Positions 1 to 33,889 of a stretch of DNA of 64,000 bases are shown here, in pieces. Under the pieces are notes generated by a model, which was given only the letters and a program-made list of their open reading frames with translations, did no database searches and was not told the origin of the DNA. Numbering within the stretch: the first letter of the stretch is position 1; each line of letters starts with the position of its first letter. This stretch comes from Verrucomicrobiota bacterium (lineage in GTDB: Bacteria; Verrucomicrobiota; Verrucomicrobiia; Limisphaerales; UBA8199), in assembly GCA_003176045.1 (NCBI GenBank), contig PSRM01000068.1, forward strand, positions 60,084 through 124,083, read 5' to 3'. The position numbers were made by a program, and so were the translations under genes.

Positions 1-1880
1 TGGACGAATTGCCGGGGATTGGTGGAGCTGGCGAGGAGGAATCCGAGGCGGACTTCGGGAATATCAATGCCTTCGTCGAGGCAGCGGATGGCGACGACGG
101 CGTCGAGGCTGCCGTCGCGGAGGGCGGCGAGGATGGCTTCACGATCCTCCGGCGGCTCTTCATAGGTGAATTTGCGGACGCGGAGGCCATGCTCCTCGCC
201 GAGCAGGCGCGACACGGCGCGAATTTGGCGCTCGTCCTCCTCGGTGACGGGCTGCTCTACCCGGCCGTCGCCGCAGTAAACGATAGCTTTGGTAGGCGGG
301 GTAGTTAAGGATTTAAGAACGGCAGAGAGGGCGGGAAGTTTGTTAGCCGCCGAAGCAAGGAGCCGAGCGCGTTTGATGAGAAGCCAAAGGAGCTGGTCGC
401 TCATCCCTTCGCCTTCGCTGGCGGGGAGGTGGCGGCAGAGCTGTAGAGTGAGATCATAGTACCGGTCGGACTCCTCGGCGGTCAGATCAACGAGGACCGG
501 GTAATAGAAATACGGGCAGAGAACGGGCGGGTTGGCTTTGATGGCATCGGCTATGGTGAATTCGTAAGCGATATCGCCGAAGTAATCGAAAATAGCCTTC
601 GTACCTTCCTCGTCCCAGCGGCGCTCGGGTGTAGCGGAAAGTCCGAGGCGGAGCTGGATAAAATCGGGGAGAGCGGTTTTGAGCTTCGCAGCGCCGAGAT
701 TGTGAACTTCATCGGCGACTAAAAGGTGGTGACCGAGCTTGGGCTGGAGCGCAGCCTGAAAAGCCGTCGAGAGAAAGGTGTCATTGGTGACGACCAGGCC
801 AATCACTTCGGTCATGCCAGCGGCCAAGCGCTGGTAGGCTTCCTGAAGGGGGAGTTCCCAGCGGGCGCGGCCCTCGAAGCAGGGAACGGCGGAAATGCCG
901 AAGCGGGCCATCTCGCGGCCCCATTGTTTAGCGAGGTTCAGGTAAGGAGCGACGACGAGGAGCACCAACGGACGGTTGCGTTCGGCCACTTTGCACGCGA
1001 GGTAGAGGGCGGTAATGGTTTTGCCGGTACCGGTGGCCATGGAGAGAATGCCGCGGCCGTTGCGTTTGAGCCATTCGCGGATAGCGTCTTTCTGGTATTC
1101 GCGAAGGGTGAGGTCTGGCGGAACGGTTCCGGGCTTAAGGTCTTTGGGCGGAATCCAGTATTGGACGTGCGCTTCATGGAGCTCGGGGGTATGGGGAAGC
1201 TGGTAACGTTGAAGGAGCTCTTTGGAGACGGCGGTGAAATCCAGCACGCGGAGACCGGGCGTACGGTCGGACCAGAGTAATTCGAAGTTGATAAGTTCCT
1301 CTTTGACGCGGCCCTGGAGATCGTCCCAGGACCAGAACACTTTGATGCTTTCGAAGTTGTCCACGAGGCCAGCGGCTGTTTCGTTGGCGGAGCCGGCGAA
1401 AGCGACGTTGTTGCCTTCGGCATCGGTGAAGATACCGATTTTCTCGTGGTAGATGCCGCGCGCAAGGCGCCCATTTTCATCGAGGCGGATGGCCAGGCGG
1501 ACTTCGAGAGAACCGTCGGCAATGAGCCAGGCGAGAGCATTGAGGCGCTCGCGCTCCAGGAGGTCTTCAATTTCGGAGAGGGAGCGGGCGACAATCTGGC
1601 GCAGAACAGTCGTTGGATTGTCCTTGGCCAGTTCAAGGGCCTGGATGTCGGCTTCTTCGAGGTGAGGTGAGGCGACCAGTTGCATTTTGCCATGGCGGGA
1701 AACGAGACTGGCGACGCCGCGGGCGGCGGACGCGAGGCTGGAGCTGGTAAAGTAACCGACCGCGCGGCGGTAGAGGGTGGCACACTCCATGCAGGGGATG
1801 TAGAAGTCTCTGAGGAGATCATCCCGACCGCTGCGGTAGCAGATTCGAAGGCGCTGGGCTAACGCTGGGAGACTTGGCAT
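1..1880 (-). CDS. PLD (HKD) nuclease domain fused to SF2 DEAD/DEAH (type III res-like) helicase; C-terminus cut by window edge
   Basis: Absent from the ORF track because there is no stop in the window. My hand translation of the minus strand from ATG 1880-1878 stays open to position 1 (MPSLPALAQRLRICYRSGRDDLL...). Motifs: HKD YHEKIGIFTD...GSANET, Walker A SMATGTGKT, DEVH box LLVADEVHNLG, motif III LSATPER, C-lobe CLDEGIDIPEV. Listed ORFs 9..308+, 726..1280+ and 938..1822- are shadow frames of this gene. Confidence 0.8.
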   Translation of the reverse strand, partial: MPSLPALAQRLRICYRSGRDDLLRDFYIPCMECATLYRRAVGYFTSSSLASAARGVASLVSRHGKMQLVASPHLEEADIQALELAKDNPTTVLRQIVARSLSEIEDLLERERLNALAWLIADGSLEVRLAIRLDENGRLARGIYHEKIGIFTDAEGNNVAFAGSANETAAGLVDNFESIKVFWSWDDLQGRVKEELINFELLWSDRTPGLRVLDFTAVSKELLQRYQLPHTPELHEAHVQYWIPPKDLKPGTVPPDLTLREYQKDAIREWLKRNGRGILSMATGTGKTITALYLACKVAERNRPLVLLVVAPYLNLAKQWGREMARFGISAVPCFEGRARWELPLQEAYQRLAAGMTEVIGLVVTNDTFLSTAFQAALQPKLGHHLLVADEVHNLGAAKLKTALPDFIQLRLGLSATPERRWDEEGTKAIFDYFGDIAYEFTIADAIKANPPVLCPYFYYPVLVDLTAEESDRYYDLTLQLCRHLPASEGEGMSDQLLWLLIKRARLLASAANKLPALSAVLKSLTTPPTKAIVYCGDGRVEQPVTEEDERQIRAVSRLLGEEHGLRVRKFTYEEPPEDREAILAALRDGSLDAVVAIRCLDEGIDIPEVRLGFLLASSTNPRQFV

Positions 1881-1902
1881 CTGGGAAGGTGGTTGATGGG
1901 GC

Positions 1903-2772
1903 CTAGAGGATCTGAGAAAGAGGCACGTAGAGGTTTCTGGTCAAACTTGCGTCGAGTGCGCCAACGTGAGTGCGTGCCGTTGACCACTTGTTCAGGTCGG
2001 CTTTCAGCGACAAGGTGTACGCGAGATGTCTTCCAGAGCGCAAAACGATGGGGAGATTCTTTGCTGCTTCCACAATCGCCGGGTTGAACTCCAGATTGGA
2101 CGCAAAGATGTAAACCAAGCCGATGCCGTCGGCCGCTTTGTCGATTCCTACAGCTTTCTGGTAATCGTGCCATTTGAGGCTATGTCTGAGGAGCAGGAAC
2201 TTGGTGTAATCACTGAACAGCGTCTCTTTCGAGACCTCGTTCTGAGCGGTCTTGGCCTGGACAAGGAAGCAAACGCCTTTGAAGGGACCCTTTTCGTGTA
2301 TGCCTATCAGATCCAGGCCAGCGTCGCCGCTCGTGTCGGTAATAAAAATGCGGGTGCATCCCAAGAGGAAGAGGTAGGTGGCACAGCAAAATAGAAACTC
2401 ACGCTCGTAGCAGCTTCGCACCCATTGCCAAACGTCGCAGTAATGTTGAGGCAATGTGGCACGTCCTGAAATTGTCCCGAACTTCGGGTGCTTCCAGGTG
2501 ACGATTGCTCCGTGTTGATCTGTGACGTGGAGCGGGCAGGGTATTCCAAGCGACTCCCACTCGCCGCAGACTATCAGGATCTTAGTCAGGATCAGATCGA
2601 TGTTCTTCTCAGCATACTCATCGGCAACCATGGCGACACAGCCCCTCGTTTTTAGGAAGCTGGCGAATTCAACACGGGCGTTGAGCCGTTCGGGCACATT
2701 GGCTCCTATGACCGAGTCCCAAATGTGACGGTACGAGAACTCGCTGACGTCGTTGCCGGAGGGTAAGGGCAT
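1903..2772 (-). CDS. Mrr-cat-like PD-(D/E)xK restriction-endonuclease-fold protein
   Basis: 289-aa ORF. The C-terminal half has the pattern GDAGLDLIGIH...FLVQAKT typical of Mrr-type nuclease cores. It starts 1 nt after the upstream stop and ends 22 nt before the helicase start. Confidence 0.55.
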   Translation of the reverse strand: MPLPSGNDVSEFSYRHIWDSVIGANVPERLNARVEFASFLKTRGCVAMVADEYAEKNIDLILTKILIVCGEWESLGIPCPLHVTDQHGAIVTWKHPKFGTISGRATLPQHYCDVWQWVRSCYEREFLFCCATYLFLLGCTRIFITDTSGDAGLDLIGIHEKGPFKGVCFLVQAKTAQNEVSKETLFSDYTKFLLLRHSLKWHDYQKAVGIDKAADGIGLVYIFASNLEFNPAIVEAAKNLPIVLRSGRHLAYTLSLKADLNKWSTARTHVGALDASLTRNLYVPLSQIL

Positions 2773-2773
2773 C

Positions 2774-3937
2774 TCAAATCTGATTTGGGTCGGAGGTTGC
2801 GGCTGTAGCCTTTTGAGCCCCTAGACCGGAGGCGACCGATTGGGCCTTTTTGCGAAGGTTCTCGATCTGGGCGATTAGGCCGGTGGTCGCGGAAAGGATC
2901 GCATTGGCATCGTTGTCGATTGCAGAATTGGGGATGTCGCCGAGCAGGTTGTTTATCTTCTTGAAAGTACTTTCCCAGTCGTATGGAGAGTAGTCGTCAG
3001 TGAGCTTCTGGTTTGCCGCTTCGATCGCGATCTCGTGTTTATCAATTTTGCTCAGGAGGCCTTCTTGCTTGCCTACGAGAAGACGGCCCAGCATGGCTAT
3101 GTGGCGCGGATCATGTATGCGGCGTTGGTTTTCGTGCTCCTCGTCTGGACAAATCCAGCCGTAAAACTGTTTCAAGTTGTCGTTGTTCTTAAAGCACTTA
3201 TTTTCGTCGTCCCACCCGAGCCAGCCCTTGACGTATTTGTCGCGGATGGCTTCTTCGAAGAGGCTATAAAACTTGTTTTCGGCTTTGCTCTGGAACTCTT
3301 CATCCTCACGCATTTGTTGAAGGGCCTTATAGCTTCGGTATCGTCGGCCCACAGCCTGGGCGGAGAGGCCAAATTGTTGTCCAGCTTCGGCCAATCCCAT
3401 GCCTTGCTTGTCAATTTGGTCTGCGATCAGCTTGCCTTGCTGGGCCGGCATCCAGTCTCGTATTCCTCCGATGTGACGGATGCCCTGCAGAATCCACGCG
3501 ATGTCTTTGGTGTCCGAGCCTTCGTAGACCAAAACATCGATGTTATCGGTGGCATTCTTGAGGGTTTGCAGGTACTCCTCGGTTATGTTCGTTTCCGCGA
3601 CGGTCCCGTCGTTGATTTGTTCTCTGAGCGTTTTGAGGGCGGCAAGACGCCGGTTGCCTTCAACGGCGACATACTTGCCAGGCAGCCCAGCAAGTTCACG
3701 AACTACGACGCGATCGAGTGGCAAGAAGCCATTGCGCAGGATGCTATTCTTGAGTTCCTCAATTCCGTGATTGGAGATTCGCGCGCGGGTCCTACTCTGG
3801 TGAGTTTCCTCTGGGACTTTGATGTCAGGAACGTCGGCGGTCTTTTGGGTTTGCTCGGACCAAAAGCGAGGATTGTTTGGGTCCAGGTAAACGCAGTCGA
3901 TTGAGACGGTCTTCTGCTTTAGTTGATCGTTGTACAT
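2774..3937 (-). CDS. ParB/Srx N-terminal-domain (ParB-like nuclease) protein
   Basis: 387-aa ORF with DPNNPRF and VAVEGNRRLAALKTL, the GxRR box of the ParB/sulfiredoxin fold. No DGQHR motif. The long C-terminal region is unassigned. Confidence 0.65.
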   Translation of the reverse strand: MYNDQLKQKTVSIDCVYLDPNNPRFWSEQTQKTADVPDIKVPEETHQSRTRARISNHGIEELKNSILRNGFLPLDRVVVRELAGLPGKYVAVEGNRRLAALKTLREQINDGTVAETNITEEYLQTLKNATDNIDVLVYEGSDTKDIAWILQGIRHIGGIRDWMPAQQGKLIADQIDKQGMGLAEAGQQFGLSAQAVGRRYRSYKALQQMREDEEFQSKAENKFYSLFEEAIRDKYVKGWLGWDDENKCFKNNDNLKQFYGWICPDEEHENQRRIHDPRHIAMLGRLLVGKQEGLLSKIDKHEIAIEAANQKLTDDYSPYDWESTFKKINNLLGDIPNSAIDNDANAILSATTGLIAQIENLRKKAQSVASGLGAQKATAATSDPNQI

Positions 3938-3974: not shown

Positions 3975-4415
3975 TCAAATGTGGTCTTCGTGTATGTCCT
4001 CGGCCTTCTTGCAAAGCAGACACGCCAGTTCCAGATGGAGCCTTGCTGGCGTGCAAGCAGTCAATTCGTGGCTCAAGTATTTAAGGCCGACATCGGCGAA
4101 GCTTTCGACGAGGCGGCAGAGGCGATCTTCGTCGCGGGCGATGTCGGCGTTCCGCTCGGTGGCGAGGCCGATAAGGAGAAGGTTTGGAAATAGGCCCTGG
4201 TTTTTGAAAACGGCGAGGTCGATCGGATAAATATTCGAGAGGAATTCTTTCGTATCTTGCGGTTTTCGGCCATGGAGGCGGTCAAAGCCACAGGAGGCGG
4301 CAAACACCACCATATCGGCGTAGGTATCGAAGCAGGCATTTTCGGCTGGTTCGTCCGAACGCCGGCAGAAGGGTACCAGCGTTTCAGCGGAGGTGGCTAG
4401 GCGTATGGCGGGCAT
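3975..4415 (-). CDS. 146-aa hypothetical protein translationally coupled to the upstream ATPase
   Basis: Track ORF 3975..4628 trimmed to Met72. Its ATG (4415-4413) overlaps the ATPase TGA (4417-4415) as TGATG. The discarded N-terminal extension is an out-of-frame read of the ATPase. Sequence MPAIRLATSAETLVPFCRRSDEP...; possible resemblance to Dnd-associated small proteins is from memory only. Confidence 0.5.
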   Translation of the reverse strand: MPAIRLATSAETLVPFCRRSDEPAENACFDTYADMVVFAASCGFDRLHGRKPQDTKEFLSNIYPIDLAVFKNQGLFPNLLLIGLATERNADIARDEDRLCRLVESFADVGLKYLSHELTACTPARLHLELACLLCKKAEDIHEDHI

Positions 4416-6547
4416 CAGTTTAGGGGGATGATTTTTGTGTAAGGGCTCTGCTGCGCTCCAGGCAGTTCTTCGAGAAGCCGTACGCTTTTTGCCCCGACCT
4501 GGTAGGAGAAGTCCGAGAGTTTTGGGTCCTTTTCCCGCCACTCCAGGATTTTTTCGGGCAGGGTATGGTATTGGAAACCCAAGATCCGCGAAGCAGCGGG
4601 TTCGATAATTGGCTGGACGAGATTCCATTGCTGGCGGGCAAGCAGGAGAACGACCTGACGGGCATTGCCCTCAAGGAAATTGGCGATGGCATGTGCGTAG
4701 TGATCGGTGACCTGATTAAACGGCGAATCGAGAAAGAAGGACTGGTCGTCGAGCTTGCCAAAACCGATGCCGAGCTTTTGCATCTGGACGTGGAGGCTTT
4801 TGCGGAGGCGAGCGACCGAAACGATGTACGCGAGGGCAAGGAGCTGGGACTGGCCGCCGCCGAGGTTCCCACGAACCTGACCATTTGCTTCGATGGCGGG
4901 CAGGAGGGTGCCGCGGTTAATGTGGGCTTTGCTGCCGTCGGTAGCCGAGGTGTCGTAATATTCCGTCACGGACCCCTGAAGCATGTGATGGAAGGAGCGG
5001 TTTAATTGCTCGCGGGATTCCTGGATGAGCAAGCGGAGCTTCTCGGCGCGCGCGCGGGCCTTTTGGAGGATGCGCTCTTTTTGGGCCAAGGCGCCAGAGG
5101 GGCGCGCTCGTTCCATTTTCTCTTTAAGGTTTTTGAGGGTTTTCTGAGTCGCGGCGATGGAATCCTCAAGCTGGGTGATTTCGCCCTTGAGGGTTTCGCG
5201 GGAACGCGCGAGTTCGCGGAGCTTGGCAGTGAGCGTACGGATTTCCTCGATGGGCGAGGCTTGGAGTTTTTTCTCGAGGTCAGAGACGGAAGCGTCGAGC
5301 TTTTCGATTTCGGCTAAGGCGCGGGCGCGGGACTCCTGGGCAGCTTTGAGTTTTGTAGTGATGTCGGCGGTGAACTTGGTGTAGCTGTGGGAATTTGATT
5401 CCTGAACGGCGTTCAGGAGGTCACTGAGACCGCGGTTGAGGTCCACGCTGAGGGTTTTTTCCTTGTAGCGCTTCCACGCGAGACGGGTCTCGTCGTCGTG
5501 GGGGCGTCCGCAGACGCAAGCGGGCGAGGAGAGGATGCGGTTGACGAAGCGCTCGGAAACATCGGCAGGGATGATGTTGTCTTCCTGCATTTGGCGGAGG
5601 ATAGACGTGGCGACAGGGAGGGCCTGCAGGACGAACGGGACACCGCGGGAGCCGCCAACCAGCCGGGCGATGTCGCCATCGGCACGTTCACGGGCTTTCC
5701 TAGCGGATTCGAGTTTCGTTCGGAAATCGCGTATTTGGGAGACAAGCCGCTCGGCGTCGCCGCCGCTGCCCAACTCCTGGAGGCGGACCGTGACATCGTC
5801 GAAATTGCCAGTGGTCTCATCCAACTGCTTTTTCTTCGCGGCTAGTTTCTCCTGCTCTTTAAGCATGTGTTTACGAAAGAGTTCTTCATTATTTAGAAGC
5901 TCGCTGTATTCCTTGTTCTTTTCGGTGAGTCGGCCCAGGTCCTTTGTGTAGGAGTGGCGGACTGCTTCGGCGGCAGTTTCGGCGTCCTGCCAGCGGTCTT
6001 CGTGGAGGAAGGAGGCGAGGGACTCGCGAATGGCGGTGACCCCGCCGAGTAGTTTACCGTCGAGGGGTTCGCCTTTGAAGTAAAAGGCGTCGAAGAGCTG
6101 CTCGGGAACCAGGGTGCGGAGTTTGGTCTGATAGAGGCCATCGGCATCTACCACAAGGGAAAGTCTTGGGACACGGTAAACCCTGGTGAACTGGAGCTCC
6201 GGTGGCATCCACTGGTCCTGGCCGCGCTTGCGCGTCTTGACGGTGCGACGGAGGGTCAGGTCTTCGTCTTCAAGTTCGAGGGTAACTTCGACCCAGCCGG
6301 CCACTTCGTGGCCGACCGAGGCGGCACCGCGCCGGCCGTCGTGGATGAGACGATAGGCGGTGAGTTCGGTGCAGTCGGGGAGGTGGCCGTAGAAAAGGAA
6401 TTTTAGAGCGCGGATGATGTTGGTCTTGCCGCTGTTGTTGGGGGCGAGGATGACGACGAGGTTGTGATCTTTCTGGGTGGGCAGTTGGATGACCTGTTCA
6501 CCCGGGAAGACAAGGAAATCGCAGATGCGCAGCTCTTTTATTAGCAT
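4415..6547 (-). CDS. DndD-like SMC/ABC-type ATPase (Walker A, coiled coils, zinc-hook-like CxC, signature and Walker B)
   Basis: Track ORF 4415..6661 trimmed to MLIKELRICDF (ATG 6547). Motifs: Walker A APNNSGKTN, FYFKGEPLD, long coiled-coil segments, SSPACVCGRPHD, signature-like GGGQSQLLALAYI, Walker B SFFLDSPFNQVTDHY. The K/R-rich 38-aa extension was rejected. Confidence 0.75.
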   Translation of the reverse strand: MLIKELRICDFLVFPGEQVIQLPTQKDHNLVVILAPNNSGKTNIIRALKFLFYGHLPDCTELTAYRLIHDGRRGAASVGHEVAGWVEVTLELEDEDLTLRRTVKTRKRGQDQWMPPELQFTRVYRVPRLSLVVDADGLYQTKLRTLVPEQLFDAFYFKGEPLDGKLLGGVTAIRESLASFLHEDRWQDAETAAEAVRHSYTKDLGRLTEKNKEYSELLNNEELFRKHMLKEQEKLAAKKKQLDETTGNFDDVTVRLQELGSGGDAERLVSQIRDFRTKLESARKARERADGDIARLVGGSRGVPFVLQALPVATSILRQMQEDNIIPADVSERFVNRILSSPACVCGRPHDDETRLAWKRYKEKTLSVDLNRGLSDLLNAVQESNSHSYTKFTADITTKLKAAQESRARALAEIEKLDASVSDLEKKLQASPIEEIRTLTAKLRELARSRETLKGEITQLEDSIAATQKTLKNLKEKMERARPSGALAQKERILQKARARAEKLRLLIQESREQLNRSFHHMLQGSVTEYYDTSATDGSKAHINRGTLLPAIEANGQVRGNLGGGQSQLLALAYIVSVARLRKSLHVQMQKLGIGFGKLDDQSFFLDSPFNQVTDHYAHAIANFLEGNARQVVLLLARQQWNLVQPIIEPAASRILGFQYHTLPEKILEWREKDPKLSDFSYQVGAKSVRLLEELPGAQQSPYTKIIPLN

Positions 6548-6554
6548 GGCGACG

Positions 6555-6767
6555 TTATTGGCTGAGGGAATCCTCGATGGCCTGTTTGAGGCTGTCTTCT
6601 TTTTCCGTTTCCGATCTGGCATCAGCGCCGGGAGAAACATAGAGGTTGAGGGCCTTTGCAAACAGGGATTGCATGGCTTCGTCCTGCAGGTCGAGGAGGT
6701 CGAGAAGCGAGGTAATTTCGATCTCGGCGTGGCGGGATTTAAGAGCTTTTGATGAGGACGCGCTCAT
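6555..6767 (-). CDS. 70-aa acidic hypothetical protein
   Basis: ORF starts 5 nt after the AIPR stop and ends 7 nt before the ATPase start. It is acidic and helical-looking (EIEITSLLDLLDLQDEAMQSLF). No recognisable motif. Confidence 0.45.
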   Translation of the reverse strand: MSASSSKALKSRHAEIEITSLLDLLDLQDEAMQSLFAKALNLYVSPGADARSETEKEDSLKQAIEDSLSQ

Positions 6768-6772
6768 TGGGT

Positions 6773-8632
6773 TCAGATCATCGTTCGATCCCTTTCCTCC
6801 AGTCGCTCGTCGAAGTTGCGAACGAACTCGAAAACATCCACGTTGTCTTTGAGGTAGAGAGATTTCTGAGCTTTTTCGAAGGCGGCATTTAGGCTCTCTG
6901 TCTTCGTATCCTCAAGGCACATAAACCGTTCCTGTATTTGGCTCTTGATCCGGGAGTGATAATTATCGAGTTGCTTGGCGATTTCGTCTCTGAGCGCGCG
7001 GTCCCTTCCCACGATAGAGGTGCCGTAATCTTCCAGCGGACCGAATACTTCATTCTTGGCCAGATACCTACACAGCAGGCAGAGCGCGTAATAGAGGACC
7101 TTGCCTGCTTTTACATAGCTTGTACTCCAGTCGAGGCCGAGGTCGTTTTTCAGGACTACGCCGAGAACGTTGTGCAGGTTTTGGAGGAAGACGAGGAAGT
7201 GCACCGACACGGTTCGCGTTTGGGAAAAGCAGCGGTTGTACGCTGCATCGCTTTCGAATAGATCGTTGGTGTTCCGGGCGAAAGTGATATCCCCAGCCGC
7301 GGCAGCAAGGCATCGTGCGAGGTCTTCGATATTGACTGGACCCCACGTTGAATTCAGGAACGCGCGGCCAAGCCTTTTCGGGTCGCTTTCCTCGACATAT
7401 TCAAACGCCCCCTCCTGGCGCTCATAGAAAACCTCTATGTCTGAAAAACGTTGCTCAAGTGCAATCTGGGTTGGGTCGTTTGCCCGCAACGCAGCGGCGG
7501 TAATCGCATTTTGTCGGTTGTTGTTGACTGTGACGGTTCGGATGAGCTCCTCGTCGCGGCTGTTGATTACACGCACCGGGATTGTGATGCGGTCCCAGAG
7601 GGCGTCGTCCATTTTAGGGGTGGAGTTGGAGGGGCAACGGAAGCGGTAAGCGGTGATAATGGTCTGACACCCGTTCAGCACATATGGGTCGCGGAAGGAA
7701 AGGAGCCCCGAGGAGAGCACGACGTCGCGCGCGTGTATGGTCACGCCATTGTGATATAGGGCGAACGTTTCCGGGTCTACGATTGGTGGCTTGTCAACGC
7801 AGATAGCTCGCAGCGTCCTTTTGATTCGGGCGGATGGCCCCTTCTCCACGTTTCTGCCAGACGTAATGAACAGCCTAACGTTTTTGGAAAAAAGGTCTTC
7901 TTTGCGGGTAGCAAACATGGCGACAAGGTCGGCGAGGCGTCCAATCCCGATGAACATGTTCGTTTGGGTACTTTGTGCGACAGGGAGGGACGTACCCTGG
8001 AACCTTATAGTTTTAGCCGGGGACGGCTGAAGGTCGGGAGGAGGGAGGTGCTCGATATACCTTGGGCCTTCGAGGCGAAGCTTGAACACCGCGTCCGGCA
8101 GGACGTCCCGGCAATCCTCTTTGAAGACATCTTGCGTCTCTCTTGTTTTGTTGTTGAGCAGGGCATCATCTTCTTCGTTGAGGTGCACGACAACAAATTC
8201 GAGCTTGAGCTTAGGTCGTTCTTCGGGAGGCAGGTTGGCCAGGTCGGCACGAAGATTGACGAGGAGCTTGCTGTCCGTGGCGGGAGACGCCTCGGAGGAA
8301 CCCAAGGCGGATTTAAGCCAAACAAGTGATTTTTTAAAATCCCTGGCTCCCTGGGCGATGAGCTTCACGCTATCGGAGTACTTGGTTTGAATCAGAACAA
8401 GGGTGGGCGGTTTGCCATCGTCACGGAGGAGGTGAAATGCGTCGAGACCGTGATCAAGACCGGACCCGTCGGGGCCTTGTTTGCTTTCCGCGGAGCAGCG
8501 TATCGCTTCTGTGGCAGAGACGCCGTAGGTCTTTGTCAGATACCACGGCGCGAAGCATTCTTCGATGCCATCACCATGTGCGTAGCACTCTTTGAAATCT
8601 TTTACTTGTTCGCGAATATCTGCGGCGGGCAT
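6773..8632 (-). CDS. AIPR-family abortive-infection protein
   Basis: 619-aa ORF. N-terminal nuclease-like GLDAFHLL...LVLIQTKYS. C-terminal ALYHNGVTI and VLNGCQTI resemble the AIPR (Abi-like) core as I remember it. Confidence 0.7.
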   Translation of the reverse strand: MPAADIREQVKDFKECYAHGDGIEECFAPWYLTKTYGVSATEAIRCSAESKQGPDGSGLDHGLDAFHLLRDDGKPPTLVLIQTKYSDSVKLIAQGARDFKKSLVWLKSALGSSEASPATDSKLLVNLRADLANLPPEERPKLKLEFVVVHLNEEDDALLNNKTRETQDVFKEDCRDVLPDAVFKLRLEGPRYIEHLPPPDLQPSPAKTIRFQGTSLPVAQSTQTNMFIGIGRLADLVAMFATRKEDLFSKNVRLFITSGRNVEKGPSARIKRTLRAICVDKPPIVDPETFALYHNGVTIHARDVVLSSGLLSFRDPYVLNGCQTIITAYRFRCPSNSTPKMDDALWDRITIPVRVINSRDEELIRTVTVNNNRQNAITAAALRANDPTQIALEQRFSDIEVFYERQEGAFEYVEESDPKRLGRAFLNSTWGPVNIEDLARCLAAAAGDITFARNTNDLFESDAAYNRCFSQTRTVSVHFLVFLQNLHNVLGVVLKNDLGLDWSTSYVKAGKVLYYALCLLCRYLAKNEVFGPLEDYGTSIVGRDRALRDEIAKQLDNYHSRIKSQIQERFMCLEDTKTESLNAAFEKAQKSLYLKDNVDVFEFVRNFDERLEERDRTMI

Positions 8633-8669: not shown

Positions 8670-9056
8670 TTAAGCTTTTTTGGGGTTTGGGGACCTCTTG
8701 ATGATGAGCCACTCGTTGGGTTTTCCGTGTTTGAAACGAACGAGGTTGAAGCGGCCGGAAGCAAGGGCGCCGTGGAGGTTGAAAACGATTACGTTATCGT
8801 TCCATTCCTCGGAGTCGTAGGTGCCTTTGTCCCAGATGCGCACTTTGCCGGCGCCGTATTGGCCTTCGGGCAGGGTGCCCTCGAAATCGCCGTACGCGAG
8901 GTCGTGGTCCTCGACCTGGACGGCGAGGCGCTTTATTCCGGGTTTTTCGGGAATTCCTTTAGGTACAGCCCAGCTTTTGAACACGCCTTCCTTTTCCAAG
9001 CGGAAATCGAAGTGGTGCGTGCGGGCATCATGCTCCTGAACCACGAACTTTGGCAT
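8670..9056 (-). CDS. Stand-alone LigD-type 3'-phosphoesterase (PE) domain protein
   Basis: 128 aa. MPKFVVQEHDARTHHFDFRLEKEGVFKSWAVPKG matches the LigD PE domain signature. Confidence 0.85.
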   Translation of the reverse strand: MPKFVVQEHDARTHHFDFRLEKEGVFKSWAVPKGIPEKPGIKRLAVQVEDHDLAYGDFEGTLPEGQYGAGKVRIWDKGTYDSEEWNDNVIVFNLHGALASGRFNLVRFKHGKPNEWLIIKRSPNPKKA

Positions 9057-12192: not shown

Positions 12193-12804
12193 CTATCGCG
12201 GTGGCGAAACCACAGAATTGGAGCGAGCTGGTGGAATTGGCCGCGACGATCCTGGCAAATTTTGCAAAGCACTTTCGATAGAATCCAAACGATTGCTGAC
12301 GACCGAAATTTGATCCCGCAACCGATACGATTCCTTGAGCGCTTCGCGGAACTCACGCGACTGGCTGTTCAGTTCGCGCAGACGGTCCTGTAGCAGTTTT
12401 GCTTGTTCGATAAGCGCCTGCGATGTTGTTCGTTGCCTGTTCAACTCCGCGGTCAACGCATCGCGGAGCATTGTCGTGTCGCGCTCCTTCGTCGCCGATA
12501 TTGAGGGCGTCAGAACTGAGGTTTCCGCCGGCGCGAGATTCCACCGGCCCGTTTGCTCGCGACGATAGAGAGTATGCCCGTCGTGCATCACGCTTGAATC
12601 CCGAGGATCGATATATCGCCCAACCGAGTACGCCGAGAATTGGTCGGGCACCCAAATCGCATCGTTTCCAGCAGCCGGTTGGCTTGGTCTCGAAAGCGGA
12701 ACATAAACAGGTTGGCCCGTTGGCGACGAGCGACAACCAGCCATGACGGCGACCGCACTGATCATGACGGAGATTCTAAAGATGGGGGGTAAGTGAAAAC
12801 TCAT
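12193..12804 (-). CDS. T4SS-associated lipoprotein with coiled-coil C-terminus
   Basis: Signal peptide plus lipobox ISAVAVMAGC. Overlaps the VirB10-like stop by 29 nt. Confidence 0.6.
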   Translation of the reverse strand: MSFHLPPIFRISVMISAVAVMAGCRSSPTGQPVYVPLSRPSQPAAGNDAIWVPDQFSAYSVGRYIDPRDSSVMHDGHTLYRREQTGRWNLAPAETSVLTPSISATKERDTTMLRDALTAELNRQRTTSQALIEQAKLLQDRLRELNSQSREFREALKESYRLRDQISVVSNRLDSIESALQNLPGSSRPIPPARSNSVVSPPR

Positions 12805-13792
12805 GGTTTGTTGAGTGATTTCCAGCGCCGAATTCCGCGGGCCACGCTACGACTCGCATGTTTCCGACTTTGGATTTGGACAGGTCGATTGTCTGAGTGA
12901 CATAGAGATAAAATTGTTTGCCCGCAGCAACTCGCACAAACACCCCCTGTTTTTTGATCGTTTCAAGGATCTGTTGCGCATAAGTGTTTAGCACCTGGCT
13001 CGTGCCGTTGAGGGCTGCGTTCCGCGCGGTCGCAGAAACCTGGGTGCCATAGATTGTTGTCTGAGATTGTTCCAGACCAGAAGCGATTCCCGAAAGCATC
13101 GTAGCTGCAAACAGCTTGATCTCCTCCATGGACTGGCTCCGGATGACCTGGCCGGCTAATCCCGGGCTCCCGTCAGTAATGCCCCATGTGCCGCTCTTTT
13201 CATTGAACTCACGATCCAACGCGATGCCCTTTACAAGCAGCTCTTCGCCAGTTTGCCGCACGATGGTCCAAGTCCCGCTAGATATGATTCTCTCACGAAG
13301 CGTATCCACCTGCGCGCGTCCGTGGATTTCTGCTCCGGTGGGAATAACCAGATTCCCGTCGTGCCACAGGTCCTGGGTGACCAACGCAATAATTGGCGTG
13401 TCATTAGCGCCCGAATCAACAGTGTTGACCAATTGGCACTGAACGAGTCGGCCCATGGGCGCGTAGGTCGAAAGGGGAGGAGGGTTCGTGTCGGCGGGCA
13501 AATCAACATGAATACTAAGCGGGGGAATTGGTTTAGCCGGAGGGTTCGTTTGGACATTGGTGGAAACCACGCGAACGACCTCCTGCGTAACGGCCAGTTT
13601 CGGAAGAGGGGGAATTTTTCGCACGACCGACTCCGAAGTCTCGAAAACCTGGTTGGTGTACAGCTTCGTGCTTTGGTTCGTTTGCCGCGAATGGAGCGCG
13701 CCAAACAGGCCCACAAGCAAGATGGCAATGAGAGCGGCCGCCAGGAAAAAGGCGGGACGCGACCTCACCATTTCTATGAGATTACCGAACAT
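12776..13792 (-). CDS. virB10: VirB10/TrbI-like T4SS protein
   Basis: N-terminal TM segment, a Pro-rich linker, and a C-terminal region (LVQCQLVNTVDSG...IPTGAEIHGR...GITDGSPGLAGQV) typical of the TrbI/VirB10 barrel. Confidence 0.75.
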   Translation of the reverse strand: MFGNLIEMVRSRPAFFLAAALIAILLVGLFGALHSRQTNQSTKLYTNQVFETSESVVRKIPPLPKLAVTQEVVRVVSTNVQTNPPAKPIPPLSIHVDLPADTNPPPLSTYAPMGRLVQCQLVNTVDSGANDTPIIALVTQDLWHDGNLVIPTGAEIHGRAQVDTLRERIISSGTWTIVRQTGEELLVKGIALDREFNEKSGTWGITDGSPGLAGQVIRSQSMEEIKLFAATMLSGIASGLEQSQTTIYGTQVSATARNAALNGTSQVLNTYAQQILETIKKQGVFVRVAAGKQFYLYVTQTIDLSKSKVGNMRVVAWPAEFGAGNHSTNHEFSLTPHL

Positions 13793-16769: not shown

Positions 16770-17540
16770 TCACGGGCGCACAGAACGCGGATCAGGAATT
16801 TGAACGGGGGTTGTGTTGGGAATGAGAAATTGCCCCAATTTTTGTTGAGCGGTCTTGAAATCTACTATCCTTTCTTCGAGACGAGCGTGTTCCTGCTTGT
16901 CAGCGTCGGTCTGATTCGCGACATGCTGAAGGAGCAGGTGGTTCATAGCCGCCTCGCGCTCACGGTCAATAGCGCCTAGTTCGGCTGCCTGAGCGGCGAG
17001 CGTCGCTTGCAACTTTTGAACCTCCGAAATAGTAGGAGCCACTTCAAGCTGCGCGGTCGTGGATTTGATCTCGTCACGAAGATGTTGCCTCCGAACCTCG
17101 GTATCGTTCATCGTTTTTTCGAGGGCTGCCGCCGCGCGTATCACGGCGTCGAACTTACGGTAGGGCAACCCTGCTCTCGGAGTTGTCTGGCCGTCCGCAT
17201 TCGTGATGCTCTCGCCGATCACGTGGTAAAGGCCGTCACCATCGTAAAGGAAAGCGGCAGAAGCTGTTGCTGAGTTTCGGAGGTCGGTCCAAGTCTGGAA
17301 GTCTCCTTTGATGCCCAAGCTTGCAATGACAGCGGCCGCTCCAGGCAGCTTTATCGTGATCGGATCGCCGAGTCGCTGCACCTCGGTTGTAATCTGATGC
17401 ACCTGCTCGATTGTCAGTTGGACCTCTTCAATAGCTTGGGCCAGAACGGACGGATCAATAACCGGGAGGTCTGCGCGAACGACGAACGGCTGGAGAAATG
17501 AGGCCGACATGATTCCAACGGCGATTGAAAATCTTTTCAT
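16770..17540 (-). CDS. TrbJ/VirB5-like secreted coiled-coil protein
   Basis: Signal peptide, the ADLPVIDPSVLAQAIEEVQ start typical of TrbJ, and its operon position. Confidence 0.5.
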   Translation of the reverse strand: MKRFSIAVGIMSASFLQPFVVRADLPVIDPSVLAQAIEEVQLTIEQVHQITTEVQRLGDPITIKLPGAAAVIASLGIKGDFQTWTDLRNSATASAAFLYDGDGLYHVIGESITNADGQTTPRAGLPYRKFDAVIRAAAALEKTMNDTEVRRQHLRDEIKSTTAQLEVAPTISEVQKLQATLAAQAAELGAIDREREAAMNHLLLQHVANQTDADKQEHARLEERIVDFKTAQQKLGQFLIPNTTPVQIPDPRSVRP

Positions 17541-17542
17541 AA

Positions 17543-17950
17543 TTACTCCTGTATCCGTAGAATTCGGGTCGCTGGTTGCACGAGCACGCCGTCCTCGTAG
17601 TGCTCCGGAATCGTGACTTGGTATTGGCGGACCGATGTAGCGTCGGGCCGTTCGCGCTGTTGCTGTTGCAGATTCCAGTACAATTGCTTCACGCCATCAG
17701 AGCGCCCGAGCGTATAACCATTGGTGTAAGCCCGTTTTTCGGAGCTGGTCTTCAATGCCTGGAAGCCTTCACTCAAGAGGACGCCCCCCGCCGCTCCGCC
17801 AGCGATAGCAACGGGGTTACCACCGCTAAGTTTGTCGCCGAGATAAGCTCCTCCAGCGCCGAGAGCGGCATCAGCCACTGGGCGTTGAAGGCCTGAACAA
17901 CCACACAGAAGTGTCAGCGCTACGATCGAAAGATTGATGATTTTACGCAT
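17543..17950 (-). CDS. Glycine-zipper lipoprotein (VirB7-like role possible)
   Basis: Track ORF trimmed to MRKIINLSIVALTLLCGC (lipobox). Gly-zipper GAGGAYLGDKLSGGNPVAIAGGAAGG. Overlaps the VirB4 stop by 8 nt. Confidence 0.55.
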   Translation of the reverse strand: MRKIINLSIVALTLLCGCSGLQRPVADAALGAGGAYLGDKLSGGNPVAIAGGAAGGVLLSEGFQALKTSSEKRAYTNGYTLGRSDGVKQLYWNLQQQQRERPDATSVRQYQVTIPEHYEDGVLVQPATRILRIQE

Positions 17951-20564
17951 GTTTTGGTTGGGCTGTTTGAGTTGATGCTGGAAGTTCATGGGGCAGGCGC
18001 ACGTATCGGACGGTGCCGCAGATGGGCTGGCGAGCGTCTGTGTGGTAATACAAGAATTCGGAATACTTGGCCCCTATTTGCTGGTCTGGTCGCGGAAAGC
18101 GCAGAATGGCTTCGCGAGCAACACTGGACAAACCCAAGTCTTCCGCGAGTCGTTCGACATCGCGGCGATCTCCGGTATTAAAGATGAACCAAGCTCGGGT
18201 ATTCCCGACCAAGGCTGTGCGAATCGGCGTGTCCGCAATCCGCGAGTATTGTTGAGCGACGATCAGGACCTGGCAGTTGAACTTGCGAAACTGCTCGTAA
18301 AGTTCTCGAAGGATGGCCTCGCCGCCTGGAATATCTATGAAACGCGAGACTTCTTCCACTATCACCCGCTTTTTTAAATGCCGCGGCATGTTCAGGATGT
18401 GGTTGCGGATGCCGTTGATTATCAAAAAACCCACTACCGTTTTAATTTCCTTCGCGGCTTCGGGGATGAATCCGAGTTCAAAATGGACTACAGGGCCGTT
18501 CAGTGAAACATTCGTTGCGCCATCAAACATGACACCGTAACTGCCGCCTCTGCACCATGGAGCGAGCAACGTAGCCAGCCATCGGCACTCCTCCTCATCC
18601 TGGTCCGCCAGCTCGAAGTATTCGCAGAGGGAAGACAAGGTGAGATGTTCCTCCGGCCGCAAAATAGCGAATACCATGTTGCGGACACTTTGCGGATCGC
18701 TTGATTCGAATTCGTCCAGGTCCGCTTGAGGAAGTTGCTTTAGGAGAGCGTTGCCCTCAACAGGGCGCGTCTGCTGGATTTCGTTAAAGCAACCGAAAGC
18801 TTCCAACTCCGAAATGCCTTGGCTTTTGGACAGACGCTTCACTGTTAGCGCAAGGCGAAGAAGTGCATTTCGCTGCTCCAAACTCAATTTCCGCATGTGC
18901 TCATCAGCATGGTCATTGGACAGTCGAGTGAGGTGGCGCGAGATGAGGGCTGAATGGCGACGTGCTTTGTCTTCGTCTGCGGGAAGCCCGATCATCCGAG
19001 CGACGACGGCAATTTGAGTTGCCGCGGCAAAGGAAGATCGCGGCAATTTCTGAGTATCCAAGGGATTGAGCGTTTGGTTTCCATCCACTCGGAAGACCAC
19101 AGGATTTACTCCGTGGCTGCGTGAATAGGGGACTTGCGACAGACCTTCCTCCACTATTGCCGTGAAAGCAAAATGAGGATCGGTTTCAAGCTCCAACTTG
19201 GTGAGCGCAAGGCTTTTGCCGACACCCGGTGCGCCCAAAGCCGTAAGGTTTTGAGGTGTGGATGCATCACCTTCGCCAAGAAACATAGCGGCGTTGACTA
19301 AATTGTTGTCGTTGCCGGGGAACAGTGCCTGAACGGGGCCGGGATGGCCTACAAAGCTGCTACACAGCGGCATGAGGTCCGCCGCAGTCCGGTCTTCGCA
19401 ATAGATTCGGAATCCCTGGTAGCGACTGCCTGTCCAGCCAGGCAGTGTTTTGGTGAACAAATGGCGGGACGTGCTGGGTAACGAGGCTTCATAATACTGG
19501 GCTCCGTTCATGGCCTGAAGCGTCGCCTTGATCGCAGCGGCTTTGTCGCCCAGTTCTTCCTCGGTTTTCGCTCGGACCAAAAGGATAATCTCTAATTCCA
19601 GAGGAACAGCCTCGCCTTCAGCAAGCCGCCGGATTTTTTCTTGCATCTGTCGAACGGTTACGGCCTGACGCTCATCAGGCTTGCGCAAGAGTTGCTGGTT
19701 GAGGCGATCCAGCGAGGATTGAGTCCTCTTCACGATGTCGGCCTTGGCCAGACGGCGGACATGAACTGTGAAGACGAAGTCGCTGAAGGGGAGATAAGTG
19801 AGGCGATGAACGATCGTAGGGAACGTTTCGGTTGGCAGCCGTCTTACAGTAATGGCCAGACAGTGATAGCCGTCCAAAACAAATCCGTGACGCCCCAGCC
19901 CCCGTAACTCAGAATTCCAAAAATTATCCAACAGGGATCGGGTCCTGTCGAATGTCGCGACAGGCTCATAATTGGGCTGGCGAGTGAGCGAAGGATTCAG
20001 GGCATCCGCCCAAAGTCGAACATTCTCAGATTCGGTCAGAGGAGTCACCCGTCCACCGATTGGCGCCAAAGCCTGGACAAGCGACTGTTCGAAATCGCTG
20101 AAAGCGCTTTTTACTTCCGTGAGCAACTGATCATAACGATGCTGGTTGCCTTTTGCTTTGGCCGATGGCCTGCTGTGTGTTTTCTGGTGGTAGGAAGCAT
20201 AGAGAATTACACGCTTTCTCAATAACTTTCCCGATTCCCGTGAGTTCCACTGTTGGATGAGGTTTGCATTCCGCAACGTTCGCGCGGTGGGGTTTTGGCA
20301 CGCCTCGGTGCTACGCTGATAGTCCAGGAGGATGCCAGTATCGACCGGAGCTTGAAACTGAATCAGTTGAAGGTTCATTCCCTCCGGAATTTGCCTCAGC
20401 ATCATCGAAATCGCGTCCTGGACCTGGTTGCATTCAGAATAAGAAGCCGATTGCAAATTGGGTGTATCGATTTCGAAACCCATCGAGATCACCCCCCTGC
20501 TCGGTCCGCCGAAGACGATAAGATTGTCCACGACAAACCCGTCCGGAAGTAGGTCAGCACTCAT
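17943..20564 (-). CDS. virB4: VirB4/TrbE-family T4SS ATPase
   Basis: 873 aa with Walker A LGAPGVGKS. The size and operon position are typical of VirB4. Confidence 0.9.
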   Translation of the reverse strand: MSADLLPDGFVVDNLIVFGGPSRGVISMGFEIDTPNLQSASYSECNQVQDAISMMLRQIPEGMNLQLIQFQAPVDTGILLDYQRSTEACQNPTARTLRNANLIQQWNSRESGKLLRKRVILYASYHQKTHSRPSAKAKGNQHRYDQLLTEVKSAFSDFEQSLVQALAPIGGRVTPLTESENVRLWADALNPSLTRQPNYEPVATFDRTRSLLDNFWNSELRGLGRHGFVLDGYHCLAITVRRLPTETFPTIVHRLTYLPFSDFVFTVHVRRLAKADIVKRTQSSLDRLNQQLLRKPDERQAVTVRQMQEKIRRLAEGEAVPLELEIILLVRAKTEEELGDKAAAIKATLQAMNGAQYYEASLPSTSRHLFTKTLPGWTGSRYQGFRIYCEDRTAADLMPLCSSFVGHPGPVQALFPGNDNNLVNAAMFLGEGDASTPQNLTALGAPGVGKSLALTKLELETDPHFAFTAIVEEGLSQVPYSRSHGVNPVVFRVDGNQTLNPLDTQKLPRSSFAAATQIAVVARMIGLPADEDKARRHSALISRHLTRLSNDHADEHMRKLSLEQRNALLRLALTVKRLSKSQGISELEAFGCFNEIQQTRPVEGNALLKQLPQADLDEFESSDPQSVRNMVFAILRPEEHLTLSSLCEYFELADQDEEECRWLATLLAPWCRGGSYGVMFDGATNVSLNGPVVHFELGFIPEAAKEIKTVVGFLIINGIRNHILNMPRHLKKRVIVEEVSRFIDIPGGEAILRELYEQFRKFNCQVLIVAQQYSRIADTPIRTALVGNTRAWFIFNTGDRRDVERLAEDLGLSSVAREAILRFPRPDQQIGAKYSEFLYYHTDARQPICGTVRYVRLPHELPASTQTAQPKHA

Positions 20565-22065: not shown

Positions 22066-23175
22066 GTGGCCACAACAGGTGGCCTGAATTCGTCCTCATG
22101 GTCCTCTATGGGCCAGATGGGGGCGAATGGGCTATTTGGGGAGAAATGGGAGGATTTACGATTCGCGGAAAGGCACCAATTTTGGATTGTAAATAATCAC
22201 CTCACACCGTGTACTCCTTCCGTGATCACTGCCGGCCACATGTTTGTGATGGAAATCTTCCGAGTTGCGAATTCTCGCTTCGGAGCCAATACCCTTAATC
22301 TTGCGGGAGTTGATGCGACGAGTTGGCGAGATTGGTGCGAAAACGTGTCGAGTATTTCACCATATTCCGCCCACAAGACCGCGACAATCATTTGGAAGCA
22401 GATGCATGAGCCAGGCCGGCAACGTGTACGGCGCGATCTACTTGCAATGATTCGCCATCTGGTTCCGACCGCTCCAAAGAAGTGGGATGCCGAAAACTTT
22501 CCTGCCTTCTTTCATAGATTGGCTTCCGAAACGCAGACAATTGGTCCTCTGAGGGCAAATTTTTGGGCGGAGGCGATTCATTCAGGCCGCAGATTCACGC
22601 TTCGCCCAGAAGAAGAACTTCGGGAAGGCACCGTCGATTCGGGAGGACTCATACGCCTCCACATCGAGCTAACTCGGCCAGCTTACCCCCTAATTCTTTG
22701 GATCACAGGCAATGGCAAAATACAGCCAATTTACCCGTGGCGGCGTTTCGATTGGAAAGGCGCGCTTAGGCACGAGAAAGTGGTCGCTCTGTGTCTTCCC
22801 GAAGCAGAGGACGAGGGATTCCCTCTCGAATCGTCGAACGGATTGGAAACGGCGATCCTCTTAGCGAGCGTTGAGGAAATTGGGCCTTATCTGATTGACG
22901 ACCTTCCAAACAGACTCCCTCCAAGTTTTCCTAACCCGAAAACCACCGGTCCCGTTTTGGACTCAGCAAAATCTCCGGTGGTTCCTTTTCGATTCACAAA
23001 GGACGCTGATTTAGGTGGCGCGTTGCACCGCACAAGATTGGGAGATCCGGTAAAAATCTCAGATCAAATACAACATCGGCATGACGAAATCGGGTCGAGA
23101 CTTGCTGGTTGTTTCGATCTGGTACAAGGATTTAGCTTTTTTGTCCGGAACCCAGAAACCGTAGCGAAAGAATGA
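22066..23175 (+). CDS. 369-aa hypothetical protein, possible DUF4384-like beta-sandwich in the central part
   Basis: GTG start, uncertain. The segment GGLIRLHIELTRPAYPLILWITGNGKIQPIYPW...ETAILLAS resembles the DUF4384 pattern that often accompanies caspase/CHAT proteins (from memory). Its stop overlaps the CHAT start (ATGA). Confidence 0.5.
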   Translation: MATTGGLNSSSWSSMGQMGANGLFGEKWEDLRFAERHQFWIVNNHLTPCTPSVITAGHMFVMEIFRVANSRFGANTLNLAGVDATSWRDWCENVSSISPYSAHKTATIIWKQMHEPGRQRVRRDLLAMIRHLVPTAPKKWDAENFPAFFHRLASETQTIGPLRANFWAEAIHSGRRFTLRPEEELREGTVDSGGLIRLHIELTRPAYPLILWITGNGKIQPIYPWRRFDWKGALRHEKVVALCLPEAEDEGFPLESSNGLETAILLASVEEIGPYLIDDLPNRLPPSFPNPKTTGPVLDSAKSPVVPFRFTKDADLGGALHRTRLGDPVKISDQIQHRHDEIGSRLAGCFDLVQGFSFFVRNPETVAKE

Positions 23176-33528: not shown

Positions 33529-33604
33529 TTTTGATTTCCTCTTGTGAATAAGCGGGCGCGAGAAATAGAAACGCCGCTGGAAATCATCCAGCGGCGGGTT
33601 GGTC

Positions 33605-33889
33605 TTAGTAATCCTCGGGAAGCAGAACAGTTGTCGCTGAACGGTCAGCTTCGGTGATGATCCAAAACCGTGTTCCGTTTCGGTCGCGATAAGCTGAAAG
33701 CAAGCGATTGCCATCGCGCAGCGACAAATCATTCATTTCCGCATCTTCGGGGCACACCTCACCCCAATCGCCACGCGCATGCCGTTGCAACCCTGAGTAA
33801 GTATCCTCGGGATTCAACTCGCGCAAAGCGTTCGAGGTGATGACCGTCTGACCCAGTGGGAAAGTATTCAATCGTATTGTGTCGTCCAT
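33605..33889 (-). CDS. 94-aa conserved small element protein (GDWG...ITEADRxxTTVLLPxDY family)
   Basis: Trimmed to MDDTIRL (GGAGGA upstream). It has a paralogue at 51853..52293 with the same C-terminal motif. Confidence 0.6.
   Translation of the reverse strand: MDDTIRLNTFPLGQTVITSNALRELNPEDTYSGLQRHARGDWGEVCPEDAEMNDLSLRDGNRLLSAYRDRNGTRFWIITEADRSATTVLLPEDY

Follow-up and report, generated by a model that had tools for sequence, protein, structure and literature searches.

A ParB-like and Mrr-type gene pair beside PbeA, a candidate effector cassette of phosphorothioate-linked defense

To our knowledge, few effectors of phosphorothioate (PT)-based immunity have been described: DndFGH, DndI, PbeABCD, SspE, SspFGH, and the SBD-HNH enzymes. 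Here we analyze a 64,000-nucleotide (nt) stretch of DNA (the window) from a Verrucomicrobiota metagenome-assembled genome (MAG; assembly GCA_003176045.1, contig PSRM01000068.1), in which a two-gene cassette lies beside the gene for one of these effectors, PbeA. The cassette encodes a ParB-like protein and a Mrr/MspJI-type PD-(D/E)xK nuclease (the Mrr-like protein). It is this pair, found within dnd/pbe clusters from Verrucomicrobia to Sphingobium, that we consider worth keeping from the analysis. On balance, we favor the view that this region makes up the distal part of a composite PT-linked defense operon, that is, a Pbe/Dnd locus with an extra restriction arm composed of a ParB-type nucleoside triphosphatase (NTPase) and a Mrr-type nuclease, much like a split SspE.

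The two closest points of reference are PbeABCD and SspE. PbeABCD together with DndCDEA constitutes a PT-dependent antiviral system, as shown for Haloterrigena jeotgali; full protection required all four pbe genes, pbeBCD without pbeA retained low-level resistance, and cleavage of viral DNA by PbeABCD was not detected (PMC6459918). A re-annotation of this system, also called the CxC ABC ATPase-centered system, describes PbeA as a fusion of an HKD endoDNase with a superfamily 2 (SF2) helicase; it assigns PbeC to the CxC-type ABC ATPases, treats PbeD as a cognate of DndE, and finds PbeB to be small and disordered (PMC10853773). In SspE and GmrSD, a DUF262 NTPase domain of the ParB superfamily recognizes PT or modified bases and turns on the nuclease; in SspE, PT sensing via the ParB-like domain controls the GTPase and nickase activities (PMC13251355; PMC12065111). 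The original prediction for our locus paired the nuclease with the helicase as a Hachiman-like two-gene system and made no mention of the ParB-like neighbor of the nuclease.

The ParB-like/Mrr-like pair and its genomic setting

The 289-amino-acid (aa) Mrr-like protein is encoded at 1903..2772 on the minus strand (coordinates are those of the window unless a locus is named). Its assignment draws on Pfam, an AlphaFold2 (AF2) model, Foldseek, and an alignment of homologues. Mrr_cat was the only Pfam match (E=3.6e-5; 24.3 bits against a gathering cut-off of 21 bits). The AF2 model (pLDDT of 92.5) retrieved the nuclease domain of MspJI as its best Foldseek match in the PDB (4f0p; E=7e-6), followed by AspBHI, N.BspD6I, and other PD-(D/E)xK enzymes, and a sequence search of the PDB with the family profile gave a sub-threshold match to MspJI (E=0.17). 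The nuclease fold expected by the original prediction is thus confirmed; DUF1837/HamA, the other family that it had named for this protein, was matched in neither Pfam nor PADLOC, and no PADLOC model at all matched at E≤0.01. The nuclease core occupies the C-terminal part of the protein, with TDTSGDAGLDLIG at 2302..2340 and VQAKT at 2248..2262. Across 95 full-length homologues, down to ~20% identity, D150, G152, D154, and Q172 are conserved in 100%, K174 in 99%, and D146 in 95%; this core is the Mrr/MspJI signature GDxGxD … QxK, i.e., D-x3-D-x-D … QxK. With its catalytic core intact, the nuclease looks active. An exhaustive profile search placed the family at 104 representative clusters (E≤1e-10), nearly all of 280 to 300 aa, a count that supersedes the 25 homologues returned by a word-indexed search alone.

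The N-terminal ~120 aa of the Mrr-like protein make up a distinct α/β domain in which W72, P80, and TWxHP (2485..2499) are invariant. When this domain was modelled alone (AF2 pLDDT of 89), all structural matches were weak and pointed to winged-helix proteins (E≥0.08, probability ≤0.21), and a Pfam scan of 20 such N-domains at E≤10 matched no family, Mrr_N included. By sequence and fold search, the domain is neither Mrr_N-like nor SRA-like; judging from the model, it is possibly winged-helix-like, and it is uncharacterized. Proteins that combine a HARE-helix-turn-helix (HTH) module with a restriction endonuclease domain adjoin dnd genes (PMC10853773) and may conceivably belong to the same family as the Mrr-like protein.

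The gene for the 387-aa ParB-like protein (2774..3937, minus strand) ends 1 nt from the start of the Mrr-like gene. Its product was placed in the ParB superfamily on the basis of Pfam ParB_N, the PADLOC models PDC-M38A and PD-Lambda-5_A, and residue conservation. PDC-M38A matched at E=6.8e-47 over its N-terminal half only (~7 to 360 of a 715-aa profile), and the protein also aligns with the ParB-like N terminus of PD-Lambda-5_A; the literature searched yielded no account of PDC-M38. Two presumed NTP-binding boxes can be recognized, LDPNNPRF (box-I-like; 3863..3886) and EGNRR (box-II-like; 3647..3661). Among 120 homologues, conservation reaches at least 97% at 66 positions, both boxes are invariant, and an AGQxFGLxxxxVGRxYR segment, likely an HTH by its sequence, is largely conserved. 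With both boxes intact, the ParB-like protein, too, looks active. Its homologues fall into at least 452 clusters, and it evolves more slowly than its partner, with ~50% identity retained where Mrr-like pairs share 20 to 35%.

The surveyed loci, designated here by L and a number, were obtained by mapping reference proteins onto every obtainable locus, including metagenome contigs, most of which were short and served only to confirm that the ParB-like and Mrr-like genes adjoin. Wherever upstream DNA was visible, a ParB-like gene of ~370 to 390 codons directly preceded the Mrr-like gene, over a range in which the Mrr-like proteins were from 83% down to 18% identical to that of the window. The distance from the ParB-like stop to the Mrr-like start was −10 to +12 nt in the window and in L002 to L012, L020, L021, L023 to L025, L027, and L028. 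DndB/C/D/E, with or without DndA, were present within 10 kb in all 14 loci that had at least 5 kb of context. Among these dnd-linked loci are some from Verrucomicrobia MAGs, from two Luteolibacter MAGs, and from Sphingobium sp. AS12, and most of the loci also carry PbeA, the small protein, PbeC, and PbeD.

The cassette is found at no fewer than four positions within the dnd/pbe cluster. It stands before PbeA in the window, L002, L005, L006, L012, and L013, between PbeA and PbeB/C in L003 and L004, after PbeD in L008, and beside DndA in L010, L011, L020, and L024, and it is set apart in L021 and L025. Because the position relative to PbeA varies, and the neighboring helicase in L020 is not PbeA, the conserved unit is the ParB-like/Mrr-like pair linked to dnd rather than the Mrr-like protein and PbeA. 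In the closest syntenic loci (L002, L006, and L012), PbeA is followed by the small protein, a canonical PbeC, and PbeD and then by convergent dndE, dndD, dndC, and dndB. Judging from this synteny, the same PbeB-C-D plus dnd arrangement probably lies past the edge of the window.

DndB is itself a ParB-superfamily protein that regulates dnd (PMC10853773; PMC12065111). In the window and in L002, L006, and L012, the cassette comes immediately after a pair of genes for a CxC-type ABC ATPase and a DndE-like protein, an order that mimics the DndB-D-E triad. It is therefore conceivable that the ParB-like protein regulates PT modification for this second ABC-ATPase/DndE pair in the manner of DndB and that the Mrr-like protein nicks DNA for modification or repair, not for defense; the recurrence of a LigD_N end-healing enzyme nearby would fit such a role. 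We regard this explanation as very improbable: the ParB-like protein has no DndB match in Pfam or NCBIfam, canonical DndB genes (PF14072) are separately present in the same loci, and L003, L005, L010, L020, and L023 have the cassette but lack the extra CxC'/DndE' pair.

Several further features of these loci were recorded. In L018 (737..1707) and L019 (1218..2188), residues 1 to 221 of the ParB-like protein run into residues 182 to 289 of the Mrr-like protein, upstream of an intact PbeA; this fusion is a deletion remnant of the cassette. L020 encodes at 1..2433 an 814-aa ResIII/Helicase_C protein that is not PbeA, located beside dndEDCB; this gene is followed by one for a second ParB-like paralogue (422 aa; profile E=2.4e-25), present in addition to the ParB-like/Mrr-like cassette. 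A gene of ~490 codons without a Pfam or PADLOC match lies directly after dndE in three unrelated loci (L021, 717..2183; L023, 4301..5776; L024, 2186..3664) and may be another undescribed Dnd-associated component.

We found no description of the ParB-like/Mrr-like cassette in the defense-system profile libraries or the literature searched. In the main text and one supplementary file of PMC10853773, ParB is mentioned only in connection with DndB, and a description of the cassette was not found there. A tblastn search of plasmid collections gave no match to the Mrr-like or ParB-like proteins.

The cassette as a possible restriction arm

A working scheme can be proposed by analogy with SspE. The ParB-like protein would load onto or scan DNA in an NTP-dependent manner, presumably as an NTPase in physical complex with its partner, would read the PT status of the DNA, and would then license or restrain the Mrr-type nuclease. 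PT-marked host DNA would be spared and unmarked incoming DNA would be cut, making the cassette the DNA-cleaving arm beside PbeABCD and a split, PD-(D/E)xK version of the fused SspE. A more specific form of this scheme, which we offer tentatively, as possible rather than probable, is that the cassette is an unrecognized PT-sensing effector of Dnd systems, analogous to SspE or DndI, in which a ParB-type clamp would be gated by NTP and the N-domain of the Mrr-like protein would contact DNA or the sulfur mark.

Several points weigh against a PT-linked restriction arm. Domains of the Mrr/MspJI type typically belong to enzymes that cleave modified, not unmodified, DNA. For the N-domain of the Mrr-like protein, structure and sequence searches gave no significant match, so that a role in reading PT or DNA is speculation. 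The Pfam ParB_N match of the ParB-like protein, at 19.4 bits, is under the gathering threshold. The 64-kb window, which ends inside PbeA, contains no dnd modification gene, and the downstream dnd genes are deduced only from syntenic relatives at 56 to 65% Mrr-like identity. The sample of loci is small (~16 informative loci), and these are partly related by descent. Finally, two IMG/VR contigs, L027 (2645..4654) and L028 (9971..11937), encode a distant ParB-like protein (29 to 32% identity) followed by Mrr_cat proteins of 281 to 284 aa; the flanking DNA that was fetched contains no dnd genes, and in L028 large serine recombinases flank the pair. Cassettes of this type therefore extend beyond the dnd-linked clade and can exist without PT, and these two pairs suggest a stand-alone, mobile version of it.

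The same two mobile or viral contigs speak for an autonomous defense system, such as a type IV-like modification-dependent nuclease under the control of a ParB NTPase, that merely clusters with dnd/pbe and makes no use of PT. That MspJI, AspBHI, and Mrr, the enzymes to which the nuclease domain comes closest, are all modification-dependent points in the same direction, as do the resemblance of the ParB-like half to the PADLOC candidate protein PDC-M38A and the nature of the window locus, a defense-rich cargo that also carries an AIPR gene. The consistent presence of dnd genes in the close clade (14 of the 14 informative loci, across phyla) speaks, however, against independent function, and the cassette does not sit at the edges of the cluster but is interleaved with its genes, lying between PbeA and PbeB/C or between PbeD' and PbeA, or directly adjoining DndA. 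We consider autonomy unlikely.

It has been argued that nucleases in Dnd neighborhoods provide either an alternative means of restriction or a suicide back-up (PMC10853773). In the latter case, a phage that inhibits Dnd/Pbe would cause the ParB-like sensor to release the nuclease onto host DNA, leading to abortive infection. Such a role was proposed for standalone endonucleases near Dnd, and a suicide option for Pbe systems, in the same study (PMC10853773); the Mrr-like nuclease has no recognizable specificity domain, and a gene of the abortive-infection type, AIPR, is embedded in the same operon. The study nevertheless locates these nucleases at the borders of clusters and often on the other strand, whereas the cassette is internal and co-directional. 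In addition, its strictly conserved extra N-domain and dedicated ParB-like partner look more like parts of a discriminating enzyme. A suicide back-up is, in our judgment, quite unlikely.

If the reading as a PT-linked restriction arm is true, a PT-sensing cassette would supply the DNA-cleaving activity that was not detected in the PbeABCD study and would bring a new class of effectors into PT-based immunity. As a small, defined, two-protein candidate effector with clear catalytic residues, it is easily tested, and it could reveal a further mode of nuclease gating by ParB-fold NTPases.

PbeA and the remainder of the operon

The helicase gene downstream of the cassette runs on the minus strand from an ATG at 1880 to the left edge of the window (1..1880). 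As the original prediction had recognized, this frame has no stop in the window; translation gives 626 visible codons. The visible protein matches the PADLOC PbeA model PDLC02704 at E=1.8e-203 (residues 11 to 626 against profile positions 6 to 622 of 682), five PbeA models are its best PADLOC matches, and Pfam identifies ResIII, DEAD, and Helicase_C, with a weak, sub-threshold PLDc_2. The missing C terminus was obtained from the complete protein of the same MAG (P0287; 706 aa), which bears the NCBI product name "DNA phosphorothioation system restriction enzyme." TIGR04095 matches the full-length protein over positions 2 to 451 of 451 (E=1.6e-170), with 568 bits, slightly below the curated cut-off of 600 bits in the release used. 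Helicase motif VI (QRRGRLLR) is found in the 80 residues beyond the window, which add no further domain. P0287 was the source of this part; the only indexed contig with the exact 289-aa protein (Logan, 36.8 kb) stops ~190 nt past that gene.

The domain order seen in the original prediction was borne out. The HKD motif (HxK…D…GSxN), HEKIGIFTDAEGNNVAFAGSANE, spans aa 145 to 167 (1380..1448) and precedes the Walker A motif MATGTGKT (aa 281 to 288; 1017..1040) and DEVH (aa 390 to 393; 702..713). The HKD and helicase motifs do not vary among eight orthologues taken from related loci, down to ~40% identity, and the conservation of the HKD residues on which the prediction depended therefore holds. 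Also upheld are the location of a PD-(D/E)xK gene of the Mrr type (24.3 bits to Mrr_cat) directly upstream of the HKD-bearing SF2 helicase gene, on the same strand and with a 22-nt spacer between its stop and the PbeA start, and the encoding of two nuclease chemistries, Mrr-type PD-(D/E)xK and HKD, side by side. Homologues of both proteins are abundant and syntenic, which argues that both genes are real coding sequence and not chance. By its profile matches, the helicase is PbeA, a family already described; since its HKD+SF2 architecture has been published, the "PLD-helicase fusion" was already known and adds nothing new.

The Hachiman-like framing itself did not survive. In a self-contained pair of this type, the helicase would sense or translocate and the small Mrr-like nuclease would be the effector. 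The two genes are indeed adjacent on one strand, 22 nt apart, and the order Mrr-like to PbeA recurs in L002, L005, L006, L012, L013, and L019. However, the nuclease has no PADLOC or DUF1837 match, neither HamB nor DrmA is among the 25 of 30 PADLOC matches listed for the helicase, and the two genes stand at the end of an operon of eight. PbeA belongs to a four-gene system with thousands of loci that lack the Mrr-like nuclease: its homologues number at least 6,227 clusters at E≤1e-30, against 104 for the Mrr-like family. The two genes are separated in L003 and L004 (where PbeA is upstream), L008, L010, L021, L023, L024, and L025, and the neighboring helicase of L020 is the different, 814-aa protein. 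The original prediction had asked whether PLD-helicase fusions always have the 289-aa partner; they do not, so that of the two properties on which it rested the pairing, the nuclease fold is present and conserved proximity to PLD-helicase fusions in general is not. We consider a Hachiman-type pair highly unlikely.

On the minus strand, the operon reads LigD_N-like, AIPR, small protein, CxC ABC ATPase, DndE-like, ParB-like, Mrr-like, and PbeA, with spacers of at most 37 nt or overlapping genes. The DndE-like (PbeD-like, dnd_assoc_4) protein of 146 aa (3975..4415, minus strand) matches TIGR04062 at E=1e-7, below the cut-off, and carries a precomputed Pfam assignment to PF27807 (DNA_S_mod_dnd_assoc_4); counterparts in L002, L006, and L012 are 64 to 69% identical. 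Its ATG overlaps the stop of the gene for the 710-aa CxC-type ABC ATPase (4415..6547, minus strand), a divergent PbeC paralogue that matches PADLOC PbeC (1.1e-55) and DndD (6e-17) as well as Pfam AAA_23 and SMC_N. The CVC motif of this ATPase lies in the middle of the coiled-coil region (aa 344 to 346; 5510..5518), and the protein is 24% identical to the canonical PbeC downstream of PbeA in L006. Next to it, at the position of PbeB ("Sp-CxC"), is an open reading frame for a small acidic protein of 70 aa (6555..6767, minus strand), assigned by synteny; it has no direct profile match, proteins at the same position in L002, L006, and L012 are 45 to 59% identical to it, and an analogous 88-aa gene in L021 carries Pfam PF20304 Sp-CxC. 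We also observed that L002, L006, and L012 carry three pairs of the ABC-ATPase/DndE type per cluster: the divergent CxC' pair with its own small protein, PbeC/PbeD, and DndD/DndE.

The remaining two genes encode a 619-aa AIPR/AbiU-like protein (6773..8632, minus strand; Pfam AIPR, 2.3e-24; PADLOC AbiU, 6.4e-29) and, first in the string, a 128-aa LigD_N (3'-phosphoesterase-like) protein (8670..9056, minus strand; precomputed Pfam PF13298). The AIPR gene is separated by 37 nt from the LigD_N gene and by 5 nt from the small-protein gene. It was not found in L002 to L012 by tblastn, and in L006 the LigD_N and small-protein genes are adjacent or overlapping; because it is absent from that position in the syntenic loci, AIPR is probably an extra (abortive-infection) defense gene that was inserted. 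A standalone LigD_N gene, encoding a DNA-end-healing enzyme within a nuclease-rich defense operon, recurs at varying positions in dnd/pbe/ParB-Mrr clusters (66 to 74% identity): a 74% identical copy lies upstream of the same module in L006/L007 (L006, 5685..6053), and a 66% identical copy lies directly after the Mrr-like gene in L008/L009 (L008, 10909..11304). GC content is 60% in PbeA, 53 to 54% in the ParB-like and Mrr-like genes, and 54% in the whole window, and this unevenness within the operon is consistent with a mosaic assembly of modules.

Elsewhere in the window are genes for conjugation: TrbI-like (12776..13792), a VirB8-like type IV secretion system protein (16770..17540), a VirB4/TraG P-loop ATPase (17943..20564), a coupling protein (27951..29396), and a TrwC relaxase-helicase (29488..32235). 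Their presence indicates that the defense operon is cargo of a conjugative element (an integrative and conjugative element or a plasmid) in the Verrucomicrobia MAG. An ArdC anti-restriction protein is encoded at 32653..33732. Among the conjugation genes are also those for a TPR-CHAT protease-like protein of 1,232 aa (23172..26870, plus strand) and a ClpB-D2-like AAA_2 ATPase (27040..27954, plus strand), a pair that may be a further conflict system. A 1,719-aa protein (52378..57537, minus strand) has only weak matches to SNF2/ResIII helicases, and its other ~1,300 residues are without assignment.

Comparison with described systems

With PbeABCD, the window operon shares PbeA (HKD+SF2), a CxC ABC ATPase, a DndE cognate (dnd_assoc_4), and a small acidic protein, and its syntenic relatives show canonical PbeA-PbeB-PbeC-PbeD with an adjoining divergent dndBCDE. 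The window operon differs in that the ABC/DndE/small-protein set in the window is a divergent second copy located upstream of PbeA, with the ParB-like and Mrr-like genes wedged before PbeA and AIPR and LigD_N attached. The window locus is thus a variation on the Pbe kind in three ways: the second, divergent CxC-ATPase/DndE/small-protein set, the inserted AIPR, and the ParB-like/Mrr-like cassette.

Hachiman, DISARM, and type III Res were considered for the nuclease-helicase pair and set aside; PADLOC, Pfam, and NCBIfam gave PbeA for the helicase and no such assignment for the nuclease. The likeness to Hachiman is one of superficial layout, a small PD-(D/E)xK protein beside an SF2 helicase, whereas a HamA/DUF1837 match is absent, the PADLOC matches listed for the helicase include no HamB model, the helicase of the window has an HKD domain, and the operon has eight genes. 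A DndB identity for the ParB-like protein was likewise rejected: neither PF14072 nor a DGQHR domain was matched in Pfam or NCBIfam, and separate, canonical DndB genes occur in related loci. The ParB-like protein resembles the N-terminal half of PDC-M38A and the ParB-like N terminus of PD-Lambda-5_A, but PDC-M38A has 715 aa, and the Mrr-like partner matches no PADLOC model.

With Mrr, MspJI, and AspBHI, the 289-aa protein shares the catalytic domain and its signature, as well as a two-domain layout of an N-terminal, putatively DNA-reading domain and a C-terminal nuclease. It differs from them in an N-domain that is neither Mrr_N nor SRA-like, in its constant ParB-like partner, and in its location where the host DNA is itself modified.

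The best functional analogy is to SspE, in which, as in the cassette, a ParB-superfamily NTP-binding module and a DNA nuclease are tied genetically to PT modification. SspE (like GmrSD and BrxU) differs in architecture, being a fusion of DUF262 (DGQQR) with a DUF1524 His-Me domain, while the cassette consists of two polypeptides, one of the ParB_N type (EGNRR) and one a Mrr-type PD-(D/E)xK protein. The cassette is, moreover, linked to Dnd and not to Ssp, and homology to SspE was not detected at the sequence level with Pfam, PADLOC, or NCBIfam. By this comparison, the cassette falls outside SspE, DndB, Hachiman, and, for its N-domain, Mrr, and of the described systems it is SspE that it would resemble most in the way it works.

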